Source: an uncultured Pseudomonadota bacterium
Lineage (GTDB): Bacteria > Pseudomonadota > Alphaproteobacteria > JACZXZ01
Direction: 5' to 3'
Assembly: GCA_963749075.1 (NCBI GenBank)
Contig: CAVVLJ010000021.1
Location: 320,001-384,000 of the forward strand
Length of the DNA stretch: 64,000 nt
The position numbers were made by a program, and so were the translations under genes. Numbering within the stretch: position 1 is the stretch's first letter; each line of letters opens with the position of its first letter. Below the pieces are notes generated by a model, which did not search any database, was not told the DNA's origin, and saw nothing but the letters and a program-made list of their open reading frames with translations. Of this stretch, positions 51,778 through 62,569 are shown piece after piece.

Positions 51778-52350
51778 ATGAAGAGATTATCCGCATTCGC
51801 CCTCGCCCCCGTCTTCGCCGTTGTCTTCGCCTTGGGCGCCTCGACGCTCGCCGCCCAGACGCAGCTCAAATCGGCGGAGAAACCGCAAGACAAGCAGCCG
51901 GGGCAGAAGGCCACGGTCATCGGCACCTACGGCGAGTGGCAGGCGATCACCTACAAGGAGGGCAGCGCCAACACCTGTTACGTCGCGAGCTATCCCAAGA
52001 AGATGGAGGGCCATCAGAGCAAGCCCGGCGAGGCCAATATCCTGGTCACCCATTGGCCGTCCCAGAAGACCTTCGGCGTGGTGAGCGTCACCGGCGGCTT
52101 CGATTACAAGAAGGACAGCACCGTCGAGCTCGCGATCGGCGACGAGAAGTTCTCGCTCTTCACGCAAGGCTCGCGCGGCTGGGCCAAGGAGGGCGAGGAT
52201 CCCAAGATCGTCAAGGCCTTCAAGTCCGGCAAGGACGCCGTCGCCTCGGGCGTCGCCGCGAGCGGCACCAAGACCAGGGACACCTTCTCGCTCGACGGCT
52301 TCACCAAGGCCTATGAGGAGGCGAGCAAGGCCTGCGGCGTCAAACCATGA
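51778..52350 (+). CDS. ialB: Invasion-associated locus B (IalB) family exported protein
   Basis: Signal peptide; G.YGEW...TCYV.S.P; T.DTFSLDGFTKAY....C; usual position upstream of rlmN in Alphaproteobacteria. Confidence 0.85.
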   Translation: MKRLSAFALAPVFAVVFALGASTLAAQTQLKSAEKPQDKQPGQKATVIGTYGEWQAITYKEGSANTCYVASYPKKMEGHQSKPGEANILVTHWPSQKTFGVVSVTGGFDYKKDSTVELAIGDEKFSLFTQGSRGWAKEGEDPKIVKAFKSGKDAVASGVAASGTKTRDTFSLDGFTKAYEEASKACGVKP

Positions 52351-52428
52351 GTACACCGAGTCGGTCCAGCGGCGTGCCGGTAAGCATGGCAATTGACTGG
52401 CGCAAACAGCATTCGGAGACGAGCTCGA

Positions 52429-52987
52429 TTATTTGCTCGACAGTCGGGTGATCTGGACGCGCCTGTTGATGCCGGCGGTCGGATTGGCCGTGTCGTAGAG
52501 CTTCAATTTCCCGAAGCCGATCGCGACGAGCTTCTGCGGATCGAGACCGGCGTGGGCGAGGAGGTAATCGCGCACCGTGCCGGCCCTTGCTTCCGAAAGA
52601 CGCTGGTTGTACTCGACGGAGCCGACCGCATCGGTGTGGCCGGCGATCTCGAAGCGAGCGCCGCGCAGGGACGAATCGCTCAGCGCCTTGCCGAGGACGT
52701 TCGAGCGAGATGATCCCGTCATTGGTGAGCCGCGCGGAATTGAACTCGAAATTGACCATGAGGCTCACCGTGGCCGGCTGCTGAGCCGGCTCGTCGCCCT
52801 CGACGGCGACTCCCCGGTTCGGCACGAAGGCGCGTGTGGGAGTGGGTGGATTGAGGCAGCCCACGATCTCGGACGCGGAGAGGGAGCCGGAGCACGCCGG
52901 GGTGGAGTCCGCAGCACTTGCGGGCAGGAGCCGCGCCGCCGTTGCGATGAAGACCGCTATCAGGAGGAGAATGCGCAGGTCAGGCAT
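52429..52987 (-). CDS. Exported OmpA-C-like peptidoglycan-binding protein, +1 frameshift at ~52700
   Basis: Signal peptide; VNFEFNSARL. After removing one base: LDVLGKALS..L.GARFEIAGHTDAVGS..YNQRLSEARA...INRRVQI. Span 559 = 3n+1. Confidence 0.85.
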
Positions 52988-52999
52988 GGCCGTCCCCGC

Positions 53000-54589
53000 T
53001 CACGGCTTGGCCGCGTCGTGCGTCGTCAGAACGACCGTTGCGGCATCGACGACCCGGTCCCGCTGTTTCGGGTCGGGCTTGTACAAGAGCGCCTTGCGCA
53101 GCGCGGTGAGATATTCGCGCTCGGTCATGCTCCGGCCGAGCCCGTCGGCGAAGAGCGGGCTCGCCGATGCCACGGCCACGACCATCTCATGCCCGAATGG
53201 CGGGCCGATGCGGTACTTGCGCCGGTCGTCGTCGCCGCCGAGAACCACGGTGCTGTTCGGCGGCAAGGCGGCCGGGACCGTTCCAAGAGGCTGATAAAGC
53301 TGCACGGCGTCGCCGCCTGCCTGAAGGTAGGTGACATAGACATAGGCGGGATAGGTGGGCGTGCGGAGGCGCAGAATCAGGCGGCTGCCGGCCCCATAGT
53401 CGCCGCCATCGTTGCCGACCGCCGCAAGCTCCAGCCCGCGGCGACGCTTGATCACGTCGTCGAGCGTCATCAGGGCCTCGCACTGCGGCCACGGCCGCAG
53501 CAGCACATCGAATTTCACGTCAACCCCTTCCGGCAATTGCGCAACCGCCTCCTTCAACCGGCCGAAGTCCGTCTCCGACCCCACCCACCCGGAGAGCATG
53601 CCATGCTGCTGGTCCGTCGCGCGCAGCTTCACCCGCGCGCATTTCAGCCCGGCCGCGGCTTCGGAGAGGCTCGCCTGCCATGCCACCGGCTCGGGTTGCG
53701 GCGGCGGTGCCGGCTCCGGAGCGGGTGGTGGCGTCGGCGGAGCGATGTCCGTCACGGTGAACGCGTCGTGGACGCTTGCGAGATAGGCGCCATATGACAT
53801 CCAGCCGAACCCGCGGTCGCCCCAATACGGCCCCCATGAGTTGAAGAACTTGAAGGCCTGACGCGTATCGTCGTGGCCGACGATGACGATGGCGTGGCTG
53901 TCATTCGAGCCGGCGGCGTCGACGTTGTAGATGCCGCCCGGCCCGAGGTGCTTCATGACATAGTCGTTCAGCCTCATGCCGATGACGACCGGATCGCCGG
54001 CCGCGAGGCGCCCTTTCACGTCGTCCAGATTTCCGCGGTCGACGACGGCAAAGCCGAAGATCGTATGCTCGCGCGCGTGCTCCCTCACCGCCGGATCGGG
54101 AAGTGCTGAGCAGAAGCGCGGGTCGTAGGGGAACTCGGCAAGGCTCGCGATGCCGTCGCTTTGCAGCAACACGAGGGCGTCGGAGATGCGCGAGCCGCTG
54201 TTGCATTGGCCGGGCGTGTGGACGATCTGATTGTAGACGAAAGCCGGGCTGAAGAGATTATTGTCGTCGGCAAGCGACGTCCCGCGGCGCAGATGATCGT
54301 AGTAGGTCCTGAGCGCGTAGCCGACCGACCAAGCGACGCAGGAGCCTTGCCTGCCCTGGTCGCGCGGATCGGGGAAGCCGCCCGAGAGGTCCGTTTGCAG
54401 CGGCAGGAACGCCCGGTAGGGCGGCAGGTGCGGCAGCTTGGCGAGCACCGCCGGGTCCTCGGGGATGAGGCCTTGCGTGTAGGCGTGTTGGGGCATAAGT
54501 GCCAGAGCCGCGGCCACGTTGGCGGCGAAGACGATGTTAGAGGCGATTTTCCTTAACTGCGTCGTGTTTCGATCAATCGCATTGTCCAT
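53000..54589 (-). CDS. Papain-like C1 cysteine peptidase with C-terminal DUF4384-like domain (start uncertain)
   Basis: DQGRQGSCVAW (Gln, Cys), SHAIVIVG (His), FFNSWG..WG..G (Asn); Pro-rich linker; RPWPQCEAL; YVYVTYLQAGG..L...PFGHEMVVAVAS. Confidence 0.88.
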   Translation of the reverse strand: MDNAIDRNTTQLRKIASNIVFAANVAAALALMPQHAYTQGLIPEDPAVLAKLPHLPPYRAFLPLQTDLSGGFPDPRDQGRQGSCVAWSVGYALRTYYDHLRRGTSLADDNNLFSPAFVYNQIVHTPGQCNSGSRISDALVLLQSDGIASLAEFPYDPRFCSALPDPAVREHAREHTIFGFAVVDRGNLDDVKGRLAAGDPVVIGMRLNDYVMKHLGPGGIYNVDAAGSNDSHAIVIVGHDDTRQAFKFFNSWGPYWGDRGFGWMSYGAYLASVHDAFTVTDIAPPTPPPAPEPAPPPQPEPVAWQASLSEAAAGLKCARVKLRATDQQHGMLSGWVGSETDFGRLKEAVAQLPEGVDVKFDVLLRPWPQCEALMTLDDVIKRRRGLELAAVGNDGGDYGAGSRLILRLRTPTYPAYVYVTYLQAGGDAVQLYQPLGTVPAALPPNSTVVLGGDDDRRKYRIGPPFGHEMVVAVASASPLFADGLGRSMTEREYLTALRKALLYKPDPKQRDRVVDAATVVLTTHDAAKP

Positions 54590-54728
54590 GGAATCTGTCC
54601 GGCCAACCGTGATGTCTTTGCGCCACGTTCCGCCCCGATCGGATGCCGGGAACGCGGACCACTGCATGACCGGTTTCGTCGCAGAAATAGCCGGCACTCC
54701 AATTACCCATTTAGCGCTATCGTCAAGC

Positions 54729-56471
54729 TCATTCGTCGGGGAGGCGTCTCAAAGCGTCCTTGGCCGCTTCATTGCCCTGCGCCGCTGCTAGCTTGTACCA
54801 GTAACGTGCTTGGGCATAGTCCGTCGCGACGCCCTCACCCATGTCGTAAAGATGTCCGACTTGGTACTGCGCCCTGTCATGCCCCTGACCGGCGGCCTTG
54901 CGGTACCAACGCATCGCTTCGGCATAGTCCATCGCCACGCCCCAACCGGTGTAGTAAAGACCTCCGACATTGTACTGGGCCCAGGCATGCCCCTGATCGG
55001 CGGCCTTGCGATACCAACGCATCGCTTCGGCAAAGTCCATCGACACGCCCCAACCCATGCTGTAAAGAATTCCGATGTTGTACTGCGCCTCGGCATTCCC
55101 CTGATCGGCGGCCCTGCGGTACCAACGCATCGCTTCAGCATAGTCCTTCGACACACCCCGACCCATTCCGTAAAGAACTCCGATGTTGTACTGCGCCCCG
55201 GCATCCCCCCGATCAGCCGCCTTGCGGTACCAACGCATCGCTTCGGCATAGTCCTTCGACACACCCCAACCGTTCGCGTAAATTACTCCTATGTGGTTCT
55301 GCGCCAACGCATCCCCCTGATCGGCGGCCTTCCGGAACTGAGCAACGGCGTTACGGAACCAGCGCTCGGCTTCGGCATGGTCCTGAGGTACGCCCGAACC
55401 TTTCTCGTATAGGATGCCAATTTCAAGTTGCGCCTCGGCATCCGCCTCATCGGCAGCCTTGCGTAACCAACGCATCGCTTCGGCAGGGTCTCTCGGCACC
55501 CCTTTTCCCATGGCGTAAAGTCTTCCGATGAAAATCGGTGCCTTGGTATTTTCCTGGTCGGCGGCTTTGAGATACCAACGCATAGCTTCGCCGTAATCTT
55601 TCCTATCTTCGGCTTCCCTTCCTCTGTGAAAGGCCTCTTCCGCCGAAATCGCCGGCTCCGGGACGGATGTAACGACCGCTACCTGCGGGGGCTGGCGCTC
55701 TCCAGCGAAATAGAACTCCCCATCGATGGGCGAAATCGCCACCCAGGGCTGCTGGGACCCGTTGGTGTTCCGATCGACGGTCAAGCCGACCTCGTTGAAC
55801 ATGTGGAGGATGTCGAGACCGGGCTTGCGCATCGCCTCGGCGAGCGCCTTGGTGTAGGGGCTGTTGCCGACGAGGCCGCCGTCGCTCGCCACATTGCCCG
55901 GCTGCGTCGCGTAGGAGATCAGCGTTCCCCTGGGCGCCTTCATCTGGGCGAGGCCGCCGCCGGCGTCCCTCAGGCCGCGCCCGCCGAATGGGTTGTTGCG
56001 GCAGGCGTCGAGGATCATCACGTTGAGCCGCGCACCCGAGGCCTCCATCTGGCGCAGCACGACTCCGGCATCCACGAGCTCGAAGTCCGCGTCGGCCGCC
56101 TGCGTCGGATTGGCGTCGACGGGGGCCAGATAATTGACGCCCTGCAACTGGAGCCCGTGGCCGGCGTAGTAGAAGAGTCCCACGCCGCCCCCGGTGAGCT
56201 GCTCGCGGAACGAGCGGATCGCTTTGTCGAAGGCGGCCTTGTCGAGGTTGAGGAGCGCCCGGTCGCCGACCAAGGTAAAGCCTAAGCTCCTCAGCGTGTC
56301 CGCTATGAGGTTCGCATCGTTGGGCGTATTCGCGAGCCGGGCGGCGTGCTGGTAGTCGGCGTTTCCAATGACCAGTGCTACGCGCCGCTCGGGCGTCTCC
56401 GCCATTGTCTCGGACGAGGCCGCAATGGCCCACATCGCCGCGACAATCAAGTGCCGGAAGAGCGGTCTCAT
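54729..56471 (-). CDS. Exported caspase-like peptidase C14 with C-terminal SEL1-like repeats
   Basis: Signal peptide; RVALVIGN; dyad FYYAGHG / LDACR; about eight SEL1 repeats (EAMRWYRKAADQG.A.AQ). Confidence 0.93.
   Translation of the reverse strand: MRPLFRHLIVAAMWAIAASSETMAETPERRVALVIGNADYQHAARLANTPNDANLIADTLRSLGFTLVGDRALLNLDKAAFDKAIRSFREQLTGGGVGLFYYAGHGLQLQGVNYLAPVDANPTQAADADFELVDAGVVLRQMEASGARLNVMILDACRNNPFGGRGLRDAGGGLAQMKAPRGTLISYATQPGNVASDGGLVGNSPYTKALAEAMRKPGLDILHMFNEVGLTVDRNTNGSQQPWVAISPIDGEFYFAGERQPPQVAVVTSVPEPAISAEEAFHRGREAEDRKDYGEAMRWYLKAADQENTKAPIFIGRLYAMGKGVPRDPAEAMRWLRKAADEADAEAQLEIGILYEKGSGVPQDHAEAERWFRNAVAQFRKAADQGDALAQNHIGVIYANGWGVSKDYAEAMRWYRKAADRGDAGAQYNIGVLYGMGRGVSKDYAEAMRWYRRAADQGNAEAQYNIGILYSMGWGVSMDFAEAMRWYRKAADQGHAWAQYNVGGLYYTGWGVAMDYAEAMRWYRKAAGQGHDRAQYQVGHLYDMGEGVATDYAQARYWYKLAAAQGNEAAKDALRRLPDE
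54860..55330 (-). repeat. Near-identical 108-bp coding tandem repeats (SEL1 units)
   Basis: CG(G/A)TACCAACGCATCGCTTC recurs at 54901, 55009, 55117 and 55225. Confidence 0.92.
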
Positions 56472-56560
56472 GATACCCGCCGCCTTATGCTTCTTCCTAT
56501 GGCACTCTCCTATCCGAACGAAAAAGCAGCGTCAGTGACGCAGCTCACAATCTTGGGCTG

Positions 56561-56589
56561 AGAATATCAAAACGGGCGCACGTGCTCAA
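56561..56589 (-). promoter_or_regulatory. Putative sigma70 promoter of the caspase-SEL1 gene
   Basis: Minus strand TTGAGC-N17-TATTCT; homologous to the site upstream of the second caspase gene. Confidence 0.55.
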
Positions 56590-56685
56590 TGAGCAACAGC
56601 ACGGGCTCGAGGCACGGTCCGGCGCCTCCTGAACGATCTCCGCACTCCCGTGATCCGGTCCTGTGACCCGCGAGGCGGCGCATGC

Positions 56686-57762
56686 TCATGACGGATCAAA
56701 GAAGTCGCCGCAGTTGTTTTGCCGGCAAAGATAGACCCCAACGTAGCTGCCATAGGGAAACGGAAGCTCGATTCCGATTGGGGTCTTTGTCGTTCTTATC
56801 CCCAGAACTCTTATCGCCAACACGACCTGCTGTCCCGGCATGGTGAACCGTGTGCTCGGCAGATCGATCACCAGGAGGTCGCCGAACGCCCCCTCAGTCT
56901 CCGACAGCATCTGGGAGAAGTCGGCCCTGACGCCGACCACCTTGTCCTTGAATGGGAACGGGTTCGTTTTGAGCATTTGCGCGCTGGCCCAGGCGACGAC
57001 GCCGTTTGCGGCAATGAAGGCGGCGCGGGCAGTCTTGCGCGCTTCCGCCAGCTCCGCCGCCTCCTTGGCCTCGGCCGCGAGTTTCGCCTCACGCGCAAGC
57101 CGCGCCGCCTCCTCCCGACGCTTCTGCTCCTCTTGTTGCCGCACTCGGCTTGCTTCGGCTTCCGCTTGCCGCCGGCGCTCCTCCGCCGCGGCATAAGCGC
57201 GATCTTCAATATTCGGATTGTTCGGCGACCAATCCCACGTGGCGGTGGCCGCTGGGTCGCTTTTCGCGGCCTTGAACCAGGCCTTTGCGACATACTGCTG
57301 GTCGTAGGACTTGCCGTAGCGCTCGGAGTAGGCCGCTATCTCCTGGTTCCTGTAGAGCAGGACATACACCACAAGCTGGTTCGTGTTGAAATCGCTCGGC
57401 GGCCCCGCCATGGAATACATCCTTGCATCCGGGCAGATCTCCTGAAATTTCGCTGCCGCCTTCCGGGCGACCTCTCTTGCATAGCTCAAATTCTCGAAAC
57501 GCTCGCGAAGGTCATACGGCACGCCCACTACAATCTCGTATGTGGTCGGGAAGCCCGCAAAACCGCGGTAGGCGCACGGGTTGACCCACCCGTGAAGGGG
57601 GTCGTGCATGGCAGGGACGACATAAAAAATTCTAACACCGCCCTCTTCGGCCGTCACTTTCTTGTAGACGGGCGGCGTCTTTATGTCGTTTGCGGCGGCG
57701 CCTCGCGCACAGACAAGTCCGGCTATGCCGATGGCAAGCAACAGCATCAGTCGTCCAAGCAT
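56686..57762 (-). CDS. Exported hypothetical protein with central coiled coil
   Basis: Signal peptide MLGRLMLLLAIGIAGLVCARGAAA; Glu/Arg/Ala coiled coil; C-terminal L.TNPF.FK..VV domain ending CRQNNC. Confidence 0.75.
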   Translation of the reverse strand: MLGRLMLLLAIGIAGLVCARGAAANDIKTPPVYKKVTAEEGGVRIFYVVPAMHDPLHGWVNPCAYRGFAGFPTTYEIVVGVPYDLRERFENLSYAREVARKAAAKFQEICPDARMYSMAGPPSDFNTNQLVVYVLLYRNQEIAAYSERYGKSYDQQYVAKAWFKAAKSDPAATATWDWSPNNPNIEDRAYAAAEERRRQAEAEASRVRQQEEQKRREEAARLAREAKLAAEAKEAAELAEARKTARAAFIAANGVVAWASAQMLKTNPFPFKDKVVGVRADFSQMLSETEGAFGDLLVIDLPSTRFTMPGQQVVLAIRVLGIRTTKTPIGIELPFPYGSYVGVYLCRQNNCGDFFDPS

Positions 57763-57902
57763 CGTCGCTGCGGCGTCTTGCACGGCGGATGATACTCGAT
57801 GCTGGCTCGCTCCCGAGGGGACCCGGCATCGCCACCCGATTGAGCGAGAAGCAAGCGCGGGCGCGGCCCCATGGCGCGATCGGGGGATTCCGCAGAGCAT
57901 AT

Positions 57903-59402
57903 CTAGGGCGTCAGTCCGCAGGCCTTGCTCGCCCTTGTGTAGGCCTCCCTGAACCCCTCGAGCGAGTAAACATCCCTTGTCCTAGCGCCTTCGGCACTCG
58001 TGCCGGTGACGACAGCCTGCCTGCCAATCTTGAGGGCTTCGACGATCTCGGCGTCGCCTCCAGCCATGGCCCATCCGCGGCTGCCGTTGGTGAAAAGCGA
58101 GAACTTCTCACCGTCGACTACGAGCTCGACGGTGCTGTTCTTCTGATAGTCATAGCCGCTGGTGACGCTGACGATGCCAAAGGTCTTCTGCCTCCGCCAG
58201 TGCGTGACGAGGATATTGGCCTCGCCGGGCTTGCTCTGATGGCCCTCCTCCTTCTTGGGATAGCTCGCGACGTAGCAGGTATCGGTCGCGCCTTCCTTGT
58301 AGGTGATCGCATTCCAATTTCCGAACGTGCCCATCATATTTGCGCGCGGTCCTGAAATCGATAGGTCCGCCACAGGTGGGATTGCTGACACTGCCTTCTG
58401 CGGCGGTGCCGCAACAGCAACCTTCTCTGGCGTCGGCCTCGCCGGCGGCAGCGCCTGAATCCGGTTGCGCGCCAGCGAGGCGAAGGCGCCCGTCGGATAT
58501 TGTTTCAGGTATGCCTCGAAATCCGCCGGGTCCTTGCTGCCCTCGATAAACTCCCAGAATACCGTCTCCTTGTCTGCCGATGGCACGGGCGCGGGCGGGG
58601 TCGGAATCGTGCTGCCGGGCGACAGGCCGGCGAAATAGAACTCTCCGTCAATGGGCGAATGCGATACCCACGGCTGTTGCGATCCGTCCGTCTCGCGGTC
58701 GACGGCCACGCCGACCGAGTTGAACATGTGCAAGATGTCGAGGCCGGGCTTGCGCATCGCGTCCGCAAGCGCCTTGGTATATGGGCTGTTGCCGCCCAGG
58801 CCGCCGTCGCTCGCGACGTTGCCCGGCTGCGTCGCGTACGATATCAGCGTCCCTCGCGGCGCCTTCATTTGCGCGAGGCCGCCGCCGGCGTCGCGAAAAC
58901 CCCGCCCGCCGAAGGGGTTGTTGCGGCAGGCGTCGAGGATCATCACGTTGAGCCGCGCTCCGGACGCGTTCATCTGCCGCAGCACCACCCCCGCGTCCAC
59001 GAGCTCGAAGTCCGCGTCGGCCGCCTGGGTCGGGTTGGCGTTCACTGGTGCTAGATAATTGACTCCCTCCAACTGAAGCCCGTGGCCCGCATAGTAGAAG
59101 AGACCCACAGCGCCGCCGGTGAGTTGCTCGCGGAAGTCGCGAATCGCTTTGTCGAAGGCGGCCTTGTCAAGATCGAGGAGCGCCTGGCCGCCGACAAGTG
59201 TGAAGCCTAGGCTCTTCAATGTATCGGCGATGAGCTTCGCATCGTTAGAGGTATTCGCGAGCCGGGCGGTGTGCTGGTAGTCGGCGTTGCCGATGACGAG
59301 CGCGATGCGTTGCTCGCGGGTATCGGCCGTCGCCTCGAGTGATGCCGTGCCGGTGACGGCCAATATCGCCGCAACGGCCATACGCCGGATAAACGGTCTC
59401 AT
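57903..59402 (-). CDS. Exported caspase-like peptidase C14 fused to an IalB-like domain
   Basis: Signal peptide; FYYAGHG / LDACR; helical hairpin FWE....DPADFEAYLKQYPTGAFASLAR; C-terminal 147 aa 98/147 identical (hand count) to IalB at 51778. Confidence 0.92.
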   Translation of the reverse strand: MRPFIRRMAVAAILAVTGTASLEATADTREQRIALVIGNADYQHTARLANTSNDAKLIADTLKSLGFTLVGGQALLDLDKAAFDKAIRDFREQLTGGAVGLFYYAGHGLQLEGVNYLAPVNANPTQAADADFELVDAGVVLRQMNASGARLNVMILDACRNNPFGGRGFRDAGGGLAQMKAPRGTLISYATQPGNVASDGGLGGNSPYTKALADAMRKPGLDILHMFNSVGVAVDRETDGSQQPWVSHSPIDGEFYFAGLSPGSTIPTPPAPVPSADKETVFWEFIEGSKDPADFEAYLKQYPTGAFASLARNRIQALPPARPTPEKVAVAAPPQKAVSAIPPVADLSISGPRANMMGTFGNWNAITYKEGATDTCYVASYPKKEEGHQSKPGEANILVTHWRRQKTFGIVSVTSGYDYQKNSTVELVVDGEKFSLFTNGSRGWAMAGGDAEIVEALKIGRQAVVTGTSAEGARTRDVYSLEGFREAYTRASKACGLTP

Positions 59403-59468
59403 GACCCCATCTCGAATCTGGTGTATCAGGCGTTAATCACCCCCGCAGTGACACGAACCGCGACGTAG

Positions 59469-59497
59469 AGACTATCATGACCCTGGGGCACTCTCAA
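59469..59497 (-). promoter_or_regulatory. Putative sigma70 promoter of the caspase-IalB gene
   Basis: Minus strand TTGAGA-N17-TAGTCT. Confidence 0.55.
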
Positions 59498-59671
59498 TCA
59501 CAAGTAGCGGCGCGCTAGAATCGTGCCCTGCGCCCCTTGGACGACCGAGCCTGGCGCCAAGGCGTGTGAAACGGATCAGGCTAGCGACGGATCGAGGAAG
59601 CTGTCACGACTTCCCCGTTGACAGGAACAACGGCCGTCGCCATGCGGAAATGGGATCCGAGTCAGGTGACC

Positions 59672-59785
59672 ATGGGGATTCGAGCATTCTGCGAGTTTGC
59701 TTTCCCGCCGGTTGTCACCTACATCCAGGGCAGCAATGACACCTGCGCTGAGGAGGCGGGCAAGGCCTGCGGCGCGAAAGACTAG
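59672..59785 (+). pseudogene. Internally deleted ialB relic (37-codon mini-ORF)
   Basis: MGIRAFCEFAFPPVVTYIQGSNDTCAEEAGKACGAKD*; segments match IalB ITYKEGSANTC and EEASKACGVK; 59749-79 matches 52314-44 at 28/31 nt. Confidence 0.7.
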
Positions 59786-59814
59786 CAGCCGCCGCCCTTG
59801 CCGCATGAAGAGCC

Positions 59815-60943
59815 ATGAGCGTCGCCGTCGAGCGCGCGTCCGAGACGCAAAAGAACCTGATCGGGCTCAGCCGCGCGGAGCTCGAGGAGGAGCTCGCCGT
59901 CCTCGGCCTCGAGCGCTTCCGCGCCCGCCAGCTCTGGCACTGGATCTATCACCGCGGCGCGCCCGACTTCGCCGCGATGTCCTCGCTCTCGCGCCGGCTG
60001 CGCGAGACGCTCGAGCGGCACTTCACGCTCGCCCGTGCCGTGGCCGTGCGCGACCAGCAGTCCTCGGACGGCACGCGCAAGTGGCTCTTGCGGCTCGCCG
60101 ACGGCAATCTCGTCGAGACCGTGCACATTCCGGAGGAGGACCGCGGCGCCTTGTGCGTCTCCTCGCAAGTCGGCTGCACGCTCACCTGCAAGTTCTGCCA
60201 TACCGGCACGCAGAAGCTCGTGCGCAACCTCGAGGCCGGCGAGATCGTCGGCCAGCTCATGCTGGCGCGCGATGCCATCGGCGAGTGGCCGTCGCCGCGT
60301 GACGGCCGCATGATCTCCAACATCGTGCTCATGGGGATGGGCGAGCCGCTCTACAATTACGAGAACGTCGCGCAAGGCATTGCGCATCGTGATGGATGCG
60401 GACGGCATCGCCATCTCGCGCCGGCGCATCACGCTCTCGACCGCGGGCGTGGTGCCGCAGATCAGGCGCGCGGGTGCCGAGCTCCGCGTCAATCTCGCGG
60501 TCTCCCTCCACGCGGTGACCGACGGCTTGCGCGACGTGATCGTGCCGCTCAACCGCAAATACCCGATCGCGGAGCTCATCGCGGCCTGCCGCGACTATGC
60601 GGCACTCAACCCCAACCGGCGCATCACCTTCGAATACGTCATGCTCAAGGGGGTGAACGACGGTGCGGCCGACGCGCGCGAGCTCCTGCGCCTCATCCGC
60701 GGCATCCCGGCCAAGGTGAACCTCATCCCCTTCAACCCCTGGCCGGGCGCGCCCTTCGAATGCTCGGACGAGGGCGCCATCCGCGCTTTCGCCGACATCG
60801 TGATGAACGCCGGCTATCACGCGCCCGTGCGCACGCCGCGCGGCCGCGACATCCTCGCCGCCTGCGGCCAGCTCAAGTCCGAGAGCCTGCGCGAGCGCGC
60901 CGCCGCGCGCGCGGCCAAGCGCGCGGCGGCGGCGGCATCATGA
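59815..60943 (+). CDS. rlmN: Dual-specificity RNA methyltransferase RlmN, +1 frameshift at ~60363-60372
   Basis: [21 protein letters not shown]; second frame [39 protein letters not shown]. Span 1129 = 3n+1. Confidence 0.93.
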
Positions 60944-61831: not shown

Positions 61832-62263
61832 TCAGCAGGCGATTGCGCGGACGTGGCCTGCGCGCGCATAAGCAAGAATGTGGCGGTCGCGCGTGACGAT
61901 GGGGACGCCGAGCGCGCGTGCCGTGGCGACGAGGAGGCGGTCGCCCGGATCGGCATGGAAGTTTCCCGGAAGTTCGGACGATTCGATGGCGATCTCCGGG
62001 GTGAAGGGGGCGAGCCTGATCCCGGCTTGCGCGAGGAGACGAGCGAACCAGGTCTTCGCGTCGGGGAGGAATTGCACCGGGTGCTTGCGTCGGGCGGCGC
62101 CCAGCAGGCCGATCTCCCAGGCCGACACCACGGACACGAGAACGCCCTCCCCGCGCGCCGCGGCGAGGATCTCATCGTGCCCGCGCGCCTGCATCTCGTC
62201 GCCGTTGGCGACAAAGATCGCGGCACAGGTGTCGAGGAGGAGCGGCCCCGCCGCCGCGCTCAT
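61832..62263 (-). CDS. vapC: VapC PIN-domain toxin
   Basis: [30 protein letters not shown]. Confidence 0.92.
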
Positions 62264-62532
62264 CCGTGGATGCGCCCCTTGCGCGCGGAGAGCGGCTCGT
62301 CGAGCACGGGGGCGGTAAGATCGACAGCCGGCGGCACGCGCACGCTGCCGCGCATGCAGCCGAAAAGCGCTTCCGCCTCATGGCCGCGGTCGAACGGAGT
62401 CAGCACCGCCATGGGCCGTCCGCGCTTGGTGATGATGAGTCGGTTGAGCTTGCCCTGCTGAAGGCGCTCCAGGAGTGCGAGGCAGGTTGCCTTGAAGGCG
62501 CTCGCGCTGATGGTCTCTCCGGCGTCGCGCAT
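62260..62532 (-). CDS. Phd/YefM family antitoxin
   Basis: [26 protein letters not shown]; ATGA overlap with vapC; GGAG RBS before ATG 62532. Confidence 0.88.
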
Positions 62533-62549
62533 GGTCATCTCCATATGTC

Positions 62550-62569
62550 TGGTCATAAATATATGACCA
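62550..62569. promoter_or_regulatory. Putative phd-vapC operator
   Basis: TGGTCATA-aata-TATGACCA inverted repeat, plus another TGGTCAT half-site at 62532. Confidence 0.65.

Follow-up and report, generated by a model that had tools for sequence, protein, structure and literature searches.

A conserved partnership of caspase homologues with a papain-like protease and an OmpA-like protein in an inserted alphaproteobacterial gene block

To our knowledge, the characterised bacterial caspase systems are cytoplasmic, and no exported bacterial caspase homologue has a known function. Two such homologues of family C14 were found in a 64,000-nucleotide (nt) stretch of DNA from an uncultured alphaproteobacterium (contig CAVVLJ010000021.1), referred to here as the window, where they belong to a block of genes between ialB and rlmN. 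The closest described relatives are the metacaspases of a 2012 survey (PMC3501461), which lists sequences carrying Sel1 (40 sequences), FGE-sulfatase (33) and peptidoglycan-binding (11) domains, mentions N-terminal helices that are possibly signal peptides, describes operons with several metacaspases in Alphaproteobacteria and counts OmpA in 14 of 217 metacaspase operons. The window caspases share with these homologues the C14 domain and its histidine/cysteine dyad, and the architectures with Sel1, FGE-sulfatase and peptidoglycan-binding domains and the association with OmpA had thus been noted before. The words papain and IalB are absent from the main text of the survey, and it reports no IalB fusion. 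We find that the block contains a real, conserved and previously undescribed envelope protease module, in which the new element is the conserved partnership of bacterial caspase homologues with a papain-like protease (C1-DUF4384) and an OmpA-like protein.

Several other described systems resemble parts of this module. The closest solved relative of C1-DUF4384 is xylellain (PDB 3OIS) from the plant pathogen Xylella fastidiosa, a single-domain papain-like enzyme to which C1-DUF4384 adds a proline-rich linker, an alpha/beta domain, the DUF4384 domain, a signal peptide and an OmpA-like partner gene. A 2023 survey of the papain family (PMC10380794) explicitly set multidomain bacterial C1A peptidases aside from its analysis. 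Craspase, the type III-E CRISPR system of Csx29 and Csx30, likewise combines a caspase-fold protease with a DUF4384-bearing protein, and DUF4384 is stated in a preprint to be often fused to protease domains (bioRxiv 10.1101/2022.08.17.504292). However, Craspase is cytoplasmic and RNA-guided whereas the block has no CRISPR genes, its proteins are exported and its DUF4384 protein is itself a protease. The OmpA-like protein resembles the Pal, YiaD, YfiB and MotB type of anchor in its OmpA_C domain with a GHTD...N..LS..RA motif, but it lacks a lipobox, has its own motif (P-S-x-E-E-I-I-x-A-L ... T-R-S-L ... R-G-V) and occupies a fixed position after C1-DUF4384. As a working analogy, the animal extracellular protease and caspase zymogen cascades also place several proteases in one compartment with a conserved basic residue at a pro/mature junction, although the families and the compartment differ, the block has no inhibitor gene and cleavage within it is only proposed. 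No curated NCBIfam or PADLOC family scored above its threshold for any of the five proteins of the block, and the EACC1-associated caspase family (NF047832), whose cut-off is 140 bits, reached 57.6 and 59. A description of the triad was not found in a literature search that excluded supplements and subscription journals.

The conservation of the partnership was examined in other genomes. An alignment of 27 C1-DUF4384 proteins led to 592 confirmed loci in contigs representing one genome per species, from which the best 80 were fetched, and the open reading frames (ORFs) in all six frames of these loci were scanned with our own profiles. Thirty-nine of the 80 loci encode a C1 domain together with the DUF4384 region while the other 41 encode C1 only (one of them, L037, is cut by a contig end) and serve as a control. 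Of the C1-DUF4384 loci, 33 extend for 700 nt or more downstream, and in 23 of these the next gene on the strand encodes OmpA_C; C14 was present in 27 of 39, lying within 3 kb in 24 and abutting or overlapping the C1-DUF4384 gene in seven. Both partners were found in 16 of the 39 loci, OmpA alone in seven, C14 alone in 11 and neither in five, three of which are short contigs. In the 41 C1-only loci, by contrast, a downstream OmpA was never observed and C14 occurred four times. From these counts the conserved core is the triad of C1-DUF4384, the OmpA-like protein and C14. The association of C14, C1-DUF4384 and OmpA named in the original prediction is thus borne out, while the unknown coiled-coil protein and the IalB fusion do not recur in the other loci and are local, lineage-specific additions.

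Clustering of the neighbouring ORFs gave the same picture, with three recurrent families found in 36, 26 and 20 loci and the next cluster in four. No sensor NTPase, nuclease, other known defence gene or secretion-system gene was recurrent beside the triad in this clustering. Alpha-, Beta- and Gammaproteobacteria are represented among the loci, together with one Binatia genome. A cultured species, Methylobacterium aerolatum DSM 19013 (L016), also has the triad, as does a Ralstonia sp. replicon. In a plasmid collection, a full-length relative was found in one of 72,556 records, a 1.98-Mb Ralstonia sp. replicon that is unannotated in this stretch.

C1-DUF4384 starts with a signal peptide and a short extension up to R59, which are followed by the C1 domain, the proline-rich linker, the alpha/beta domain and DUF4384. 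Its PF00112 score lies above the cut-off and the modelled fold is that of papain, which places it in the papain family (C1A). The catalytic residues Q78, C84, H232 and N250 are invariant in all 27 relatives, and a histidine (YAGHG) and cysteine (LDACR) dyad is present in both window caspases, as the original prediction of intact active sites had stated. DUF4384 (PF14326) scores 37.3 bits against a cut-off of 27 and is matched by all 27 relatives. An inhibitory propeptide of the I29 type was not matched in C1-DUF4384 at E values up to 1; about 21 residues separate the predicted signal cleavage site from R59, which is typical of the short bacterial type, and membership of the papain family does not depend on a long propeptide. 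The structure model (mean confidence, pLDDT, 86.6) has a disordered proline-rich linker at residues 284-301, after which a helix-strand-strand-helix-strand domain with an invariant C317 and a W-P-Q-C370-E motif is predicted, followed by the DUF4384 beta domain. This order of elements is presumably the BON topology. BON (PF04972) matched residues 303-364 weakly, in three of 27 relatives at E values up to 1 (best 0.043), and the alpha/beta domain is possibly BON-like. In fold searches with the full model the papain domain took up the match list, so that they effectively covered the protein outside residues 302-529. Conserved cysteine pairs were noticed both in the C-terminal half of C1-DUF4384 and in the C-terminal domain of the unknown protein, in agreement with export.

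In the OmpA-like protein, a signal peptide and the conserved motif near the N-terminus precede the OmpA_C domain. Between the C1-DUF4384 stop and the start of this gene there are 12 nt in the window, and 10-12 nt in the two loci measured (the window and L015). The NCBIfam equivalogs for Pal, YiaD, YfiB, MotB and TssL all scored below their cut-offs, the best being YiaD with 52.9 bits against 175. A complex prediction for the L015 pair, with C1-DUF4384 (residues 57-558) and the OmpA-like protein (residues 33-194) supplied as alignments, scored 0.07 and 0.30 where the mark is 0.32; having been run without controls, it carries no weight in either direction on binding.

Both window caspases match PF00656 strongly (scores of 126.5 and 123.7 bits, cut-off 21.4), and the histidine/cysteine dyad is present in 44 of the 45 C14 ORFs aligned. 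In caspase-Sel1 the repeats (PF08238) score 218.3 bits over seven stretches, and its best solved matches are Sel1 proteins (E values down to 2.2e-100) and the MALT1 paracaspase. In caspase-IalB the fused IalB domain (PF06776) scores 45.0 bits against a cut-off of 22.1. The partner domains vary widely outside the window, where the 43 C14 ORFs of the loci carry FGE-sulfatase, PG_binding_1, Sel1, MORN, PAN, WD40, SH3_3, OmpA, DUF4384 or no recognised partner. The genome itself has 13 PF00656 matches, of which only the two in the block adjoin C1-DUF4384 and an OmpA-like gene; at least nine of the 13 have a hydrophobic stretch 28-45 residues before the caspase domain, and their partner domains include Sel1, YfiO-like, TonB_C, FGE-sulfatase and WD40. 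A conserved protease module with swappable domains, as originally proposed, is therefore seen both beside C1-DUF4384 elsewhere and among the paralogues of this genome. A further arrangement was noticed in six loci (L041, L047, L053, L077, L080 and L082), where proteins of 1285-1655 residues adjoin C1 or C1-DUF4384 genes and combine a C-terminal C14 domain with, variously, SH3_3, TPR, OmpA and WD40, a form in which anchor and caspase are fused.

All five proteins of the block begin with a positively charged start, a hydrophobic stretch and a small-residue site resembling a cleavage site. The hydrophobic N-termini of the original prediction are thus present throughout, with the proviso that in C1-DUF4384 this holds only when translation starts at M37, which is also the start of the database copy (P0003). 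A hydrophobic N-terminal stretch was found in 24 of the 27 C1-DUF4384 relatives and in 52 of 332 long control ORFs, and the three exceptions among the relatives resemble truncated gene calls.

The most specific indication of how the two protease types might be connected is found at R59. When the protein is aligned to mature chains of the papain family, residue 105 (numbering of the 565-residue query) is matched by residue 10 of ficin and residue 110 by residue 15 of cathepsin K, so that the first residue of the mature enzyme corresponds to the one right after R59 in the 529-residue numbering. All 27 relatives have R59, and arginine at the position 25 residues before the catalytic cysteine was observed in 34 of 36 C1-DUF4384 loci compared with 11 of 41 C1-only loci. 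Orthocaspases cut after positively charged residues (PMC6426788). Because an invariant arginine at the pro/mature junction would suit this specificity, we infer that the papain-like enzyme may be activated by its caspase neighbour at Arg59.

The original interpretation, an envelope proteolytic cascade whose protease module is directed by swappable recognition domains, is partly supported, the cascade itself being putative. In the mechanism that we propose, the first core part would be the exported papain-like protease with its C-terminal half of alpha/beta domain and DUF4384, and the OmpA-like protein would hold the unit at the cell wall. The non-catalytic domains of the caspases differ between genomes and probably choose the target or the signal. 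The two protease types would act in sequence, most likely with the caspase homologue, which should cut after arginine or lysine, cutting the papain-like enzyme after Arg59; this cut would remove the short N-terminal extension and expose a canonical mature N-terminus. The likeliest final substrates would be envelope proteins or foreign proteins entering the periplasm. That the block carries such a conserved periplasmic envelope module, with a papain-like protease, an OmpA-like anchor and one or more caspases acting in sequence, appears to us about evenly balanced between right and wrong. A more elaborate version, in which the triad is a cell-wall-anchored periplasmic cascade for envelope surveillance, is a tentative and on the whole unlikely extension. 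Here, caspase initiators with sensor domains (Sel1, IalB, FGE-sulfatase-type lectin, peptidoglycan-binding, MORN or PAN) would detect a foreign or damage signal and cut the papain-like executioner after Arg59, the activated enzyme, tethered to the peptidoglycan by the OmpA-like protein, would degrade intruding or self envelope proteins, and new sensors would arise by duplication and domain capture, as in the IalB fusion.

A number of observations weigh against sequential action in a fixed unit, and many of them suit a rival explanation in which there is no cascade and the exported enzymes work independently. They would have their compartment in common, and possibly a regulator or an anchor, while each acts on its own envelope or extracellular substrates, for instance in quality control, turnover or the release of nutrient peptides. 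Tight spacing in the block is confined to the C1-DUF4384 and OmpA-like genes, with gaps of 139-214 nt elsewhere, and promoter-like and terminator-like sites in 52200-59900 (2 and 8, with 1.7 and 5.4 expected) are not above chance. The triad is frequent and not obligatory, since C14 is missing from the fetched DNA of 12 of the 39 C1-DUF4384 loci and 10 of 33 have no directly downstream OmpA; the loci come from related lineages, so these counts overstate the statistical weight, although the contrast with the control loci is still large. An hmmsearch of the genome found no second C1-DUF4384, and by coordinates its other OmpA-like matches are not near the 11 other C14 paralogues, which means that the caspases can work alone. 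The junction arginine is not exclusive to loci with C14 and arginine occurs near the junction in 11 of 41 C1-only relatives as well. In addition, the signal peptides were judged by a hydrophobicity heuristic, and any contact or cleavage between two of the proteins is putative. Contig C20 of the same genome (G000; 501075-503177, L114:5076-7178) has a second pair of a DUF4384-region protein and an OmpA-like protein, in which the former (405-463 residues, hmmsearch E value 2e-31, BON 0.0075) has no recognisable protease, the genome's best OmpA-like match (1.2e-49) follows directly and no C14 is nearby. From this pair, the DUF4384-region protein and the OmpA-like protein seem to be the basic couple. 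Independent action is nevertheless unlikely in our judgement, as 24 of the 39 C1-DUF4384 loci have C14 at a distance of up to 3 kb compared with four of 41 C1-only loci that have it anywhere in the locus, the two genes abut or overlap in seven, and Arg59 falls exactly at the position of the mature N-terminus.

The same features can be read in terms of defence or cell death, with the binding domains of the caspases sensing a foreign or damage signal in the periplasm, for example from a phage, a predator or a competitor's toxin, and the proteases destroying the intruder or the cell's own envelope. FGE-sulfatase is a lectin-like binding fold that is diversified by retroelements in other bacteria, and it is the commonest partner domain on the neighbouring C14 proteins; the block is moreover an accessory insertion that was acquired horizontally and whose sensor-like domains vary. 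In some versions of Csx30, the Craspase substrate, the C-terminal part is also a DUF4384 domain (bioRxiv 10.1101/2022.08.17.504292). We hold this reading to be clearly improbable, given that PADLOC returned generic caspase (3.3e-10) and ZorB/MotB-like (6e-6) similarity and no system component, and that no known defence gene recurs beside the triad in the scanned loci. Secretion of the proteases past the outer membrane, for nutrition or for interaction with a host or neighbour, would make the OmpA-like protein an unrelated neighbour. Although Sel1 and IalB domains occur in host-interaction proteins and xylellain comes from a plant pathogen, this is very doubtful: the OmpA-like gene is the most constant neighbour (23 of 33), sits 10-12 nt after the C1-DUF4384 stop in the two loci measured and encodes a motif of its own, no secretion-system genes are recurrent in the loci, and some of the neighbouring caspases carry peptidoglycan-binding domains. 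The 13 PF00656 matches could finally suggest a chance cluster that arose by paralogue expansion in a caspase-rich genome and has no functional link. This has hardly any probability, as the same three families recur in several proteobacterial classes and in one Binatia genome while the C1-only controls lack them.

The ialB–rlmN interval holds five co-oriented minus-strand genes (Table 1), for caspase-IalB, the coiled-coil/OB-fold protein, caspase-Sel1, C1-DUF4384 and the OmpA-like protein. All five had been predicted from the sequence and were confirmed.

Table 1. Positions of the block genes, the insertion boundaries and the flanking genes in the window
Feature	Position	Strand	Description
Resident ialB (left flank)	51778..52350	+	PF06776 5e-12, 46.5 bits
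Left direct-repeat copy	52314-52344		Last 31 nt of resident ialB
OmpA-like	52429-52987	-	PF00691 9.3e-15, 55.2 bits (cut-off 27.2)
C1-DUF4384	53000-54589	-	529 residues from M37; PF00112 4.5e-11, PF14326 2.9e-9
Caspase-Sel1	54729-56471	-	580 residues; PF00656 1.2e-35, PF08238 with 7 Sel1 repeats
Unknown coiled-coil/OB-fold protein	56686-57762	-	358 residues from M47
Caspase-IalB	57903-59402	-	499 residues; PF00656 1.7e-36 (residues 32-256), PF06776 1.5e-11 (residues 363-490)
Non-coding stretch upstream of caspase-IalB	59403..59748		GC 0.595; no ORF at an 80-residue cut-off
Right direct-repeat copy	59749-59779	+	ialB 3'-end remnant, 36 nt before the rlmN start
rlmN (right flank)	59815..60943	+	Two overlapping ORFs, apparent frameshift near 60372

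The block is a 7,435-nt insertion located where ialB ends. Just upstream of rlmN, 31 nt from the 3' end of ialB are present a second time, and the resulting two direct repeats, which are 90% identical and spaced 7435 nt apart, bound the block; when the locus is aligned to relatives, the similarity to ialB starts only at 59749. The resident ialB is 66-78% identical to the single ialB of each of 10 family relatives, and rlmN directly follows ialB in eight of these; of the other two, one locus stops at a contig end and one has no rlmN inside the locus. A contig from a public soil-metagenome run (X1) joins 52344 to 59851 and carries many base differences, so it represents the empty site in a related strain of the same soil sample. 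This contig was observed to be deeper (14.5) than the contigs that bear the block (about 4-6). The guanine-cytosine (GC) content of the block is 0.634, compared with 0.697 in the rest of the window, which agrees with the initial observation that it is more AT-rich than its flanks, and with a genome mean of 0.684 (standard deviation 0.025); 5% of genome windows of the same size have a GC content equal to or below that of the block. No integrase was found inside the block. It would be a horizontally acquired islet placed at the 3' end of ialB.

The two window caspases share 75% identity over 307 residues and 84% in DNA and are therefore the products of a recent tandem duplication. The fused IalB domain and the resident ialB, which form an inverted repeat, share 66% of their residues and 78% of their nucleotides. 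In a small tree it groups with the IalB of the genus itself on a long branch (support 89/92), a placement that is tentative. PF06776 was found in none of the 43 matches to the C-terminal half of caspase-IalB in a search of 5.8 billion proteins of 274-874 residues. We read the fusion as a tandem caspase duplicate that captured the adjacent ialB as an inverted copy. Past the caspase domain (about 58430-58560; residues about 282-325 of caspase-IalB), some 35-65 residues are common to 43 proteins and cover 15-31% of the 230-residue query; the carriers of this segment have C14, FGE-sulfatase, PG_binding_1, TIR, DUF4189 or kinase domains. The segment was assigned to the linker by eye and may represent a widely used linker or docking motif. 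The Sel1 region (54700-55584) was observed to contain 108-nt tandem DNA repeats, with six overlapping 216-nt copies that are 63-85% identical to the reference copy, and their similarity at the DNA level suggests a recent repeat expansion.

The unknown protein has no Pfam match. Its rare N-terminal domain has three relatives at 32-38% identity, and a 70-residue helix is confidently predicted in the model. Its C-terminal portion of about 100 residues (56689-57000) is preceded by a coiled coil, has a possible OB-like fold with two conserved C-terminal cysteines and is common to 461 proteins without being covered by a Pfam model; these relatives were obtained with an exhaustive search where a word-based search gave two. 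In other proteins this domain is joined to LprI, Ivy, M23, PG_binding_1, Sel1, TPR, FKBP or DUF2207; it lies behind the first six of these, and those families are mostly periplasmic. A Protein Atlas look-up of the OB domain gave a best score of 0.86, below the useful range. The unknown protein was absent beside C1-DUF4384 among the 80 scanned loci. An ATG abutting the caspase-IalB stop (57900) was considered as its start and rejected in favour of M47; three full-length relatives align to it from their residues 8-13, which makes M47 the most likely start on alignment grounds.

The OmpA-like gene is read in two frames in the window with a switch at about 52700, where there is one extra base, and its frame fragments tile onto 23 relatives without loss. 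rlmN is similarly split into two overlapping frames near 60372 (60360-60390). Contigs of X1 and of a second public soil-metagenome run (X2) are one base shorter at both 52700 and 60372; both shifts are therefore assembly errors and the OmpA-like gene is intact. We considered that this gene could be a true pseudogene and rejected this, as the X1 and X2 contigs lack the extra base at 52700. The assembly may contain further single-base insertions. X1 and X2 possibly include the source sample of the genome and hence count as separate assemblies and not as independent proof that the block exists. Beyond rlmN, two overlapping minus-strand ORFs of 143 and 98 residues (61832-62556) resemble a PIN-type toxin and its antitoxin by eye.

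Caspase homologues are abundant in Alphaproteobacteria, and the partnership with a papain-like protease and an anchor gives the exported ones a concrete setting. If a caspase does cut the papain-like enzyme at Arg59, this would be a bacterial counterpart of the zymogen cascades. The window also illustrates how new binding domains may be gained, in this case apparently by tandem duplication of a caspase gene and capture of the adjoining housekeeping gene as an inverted copy.

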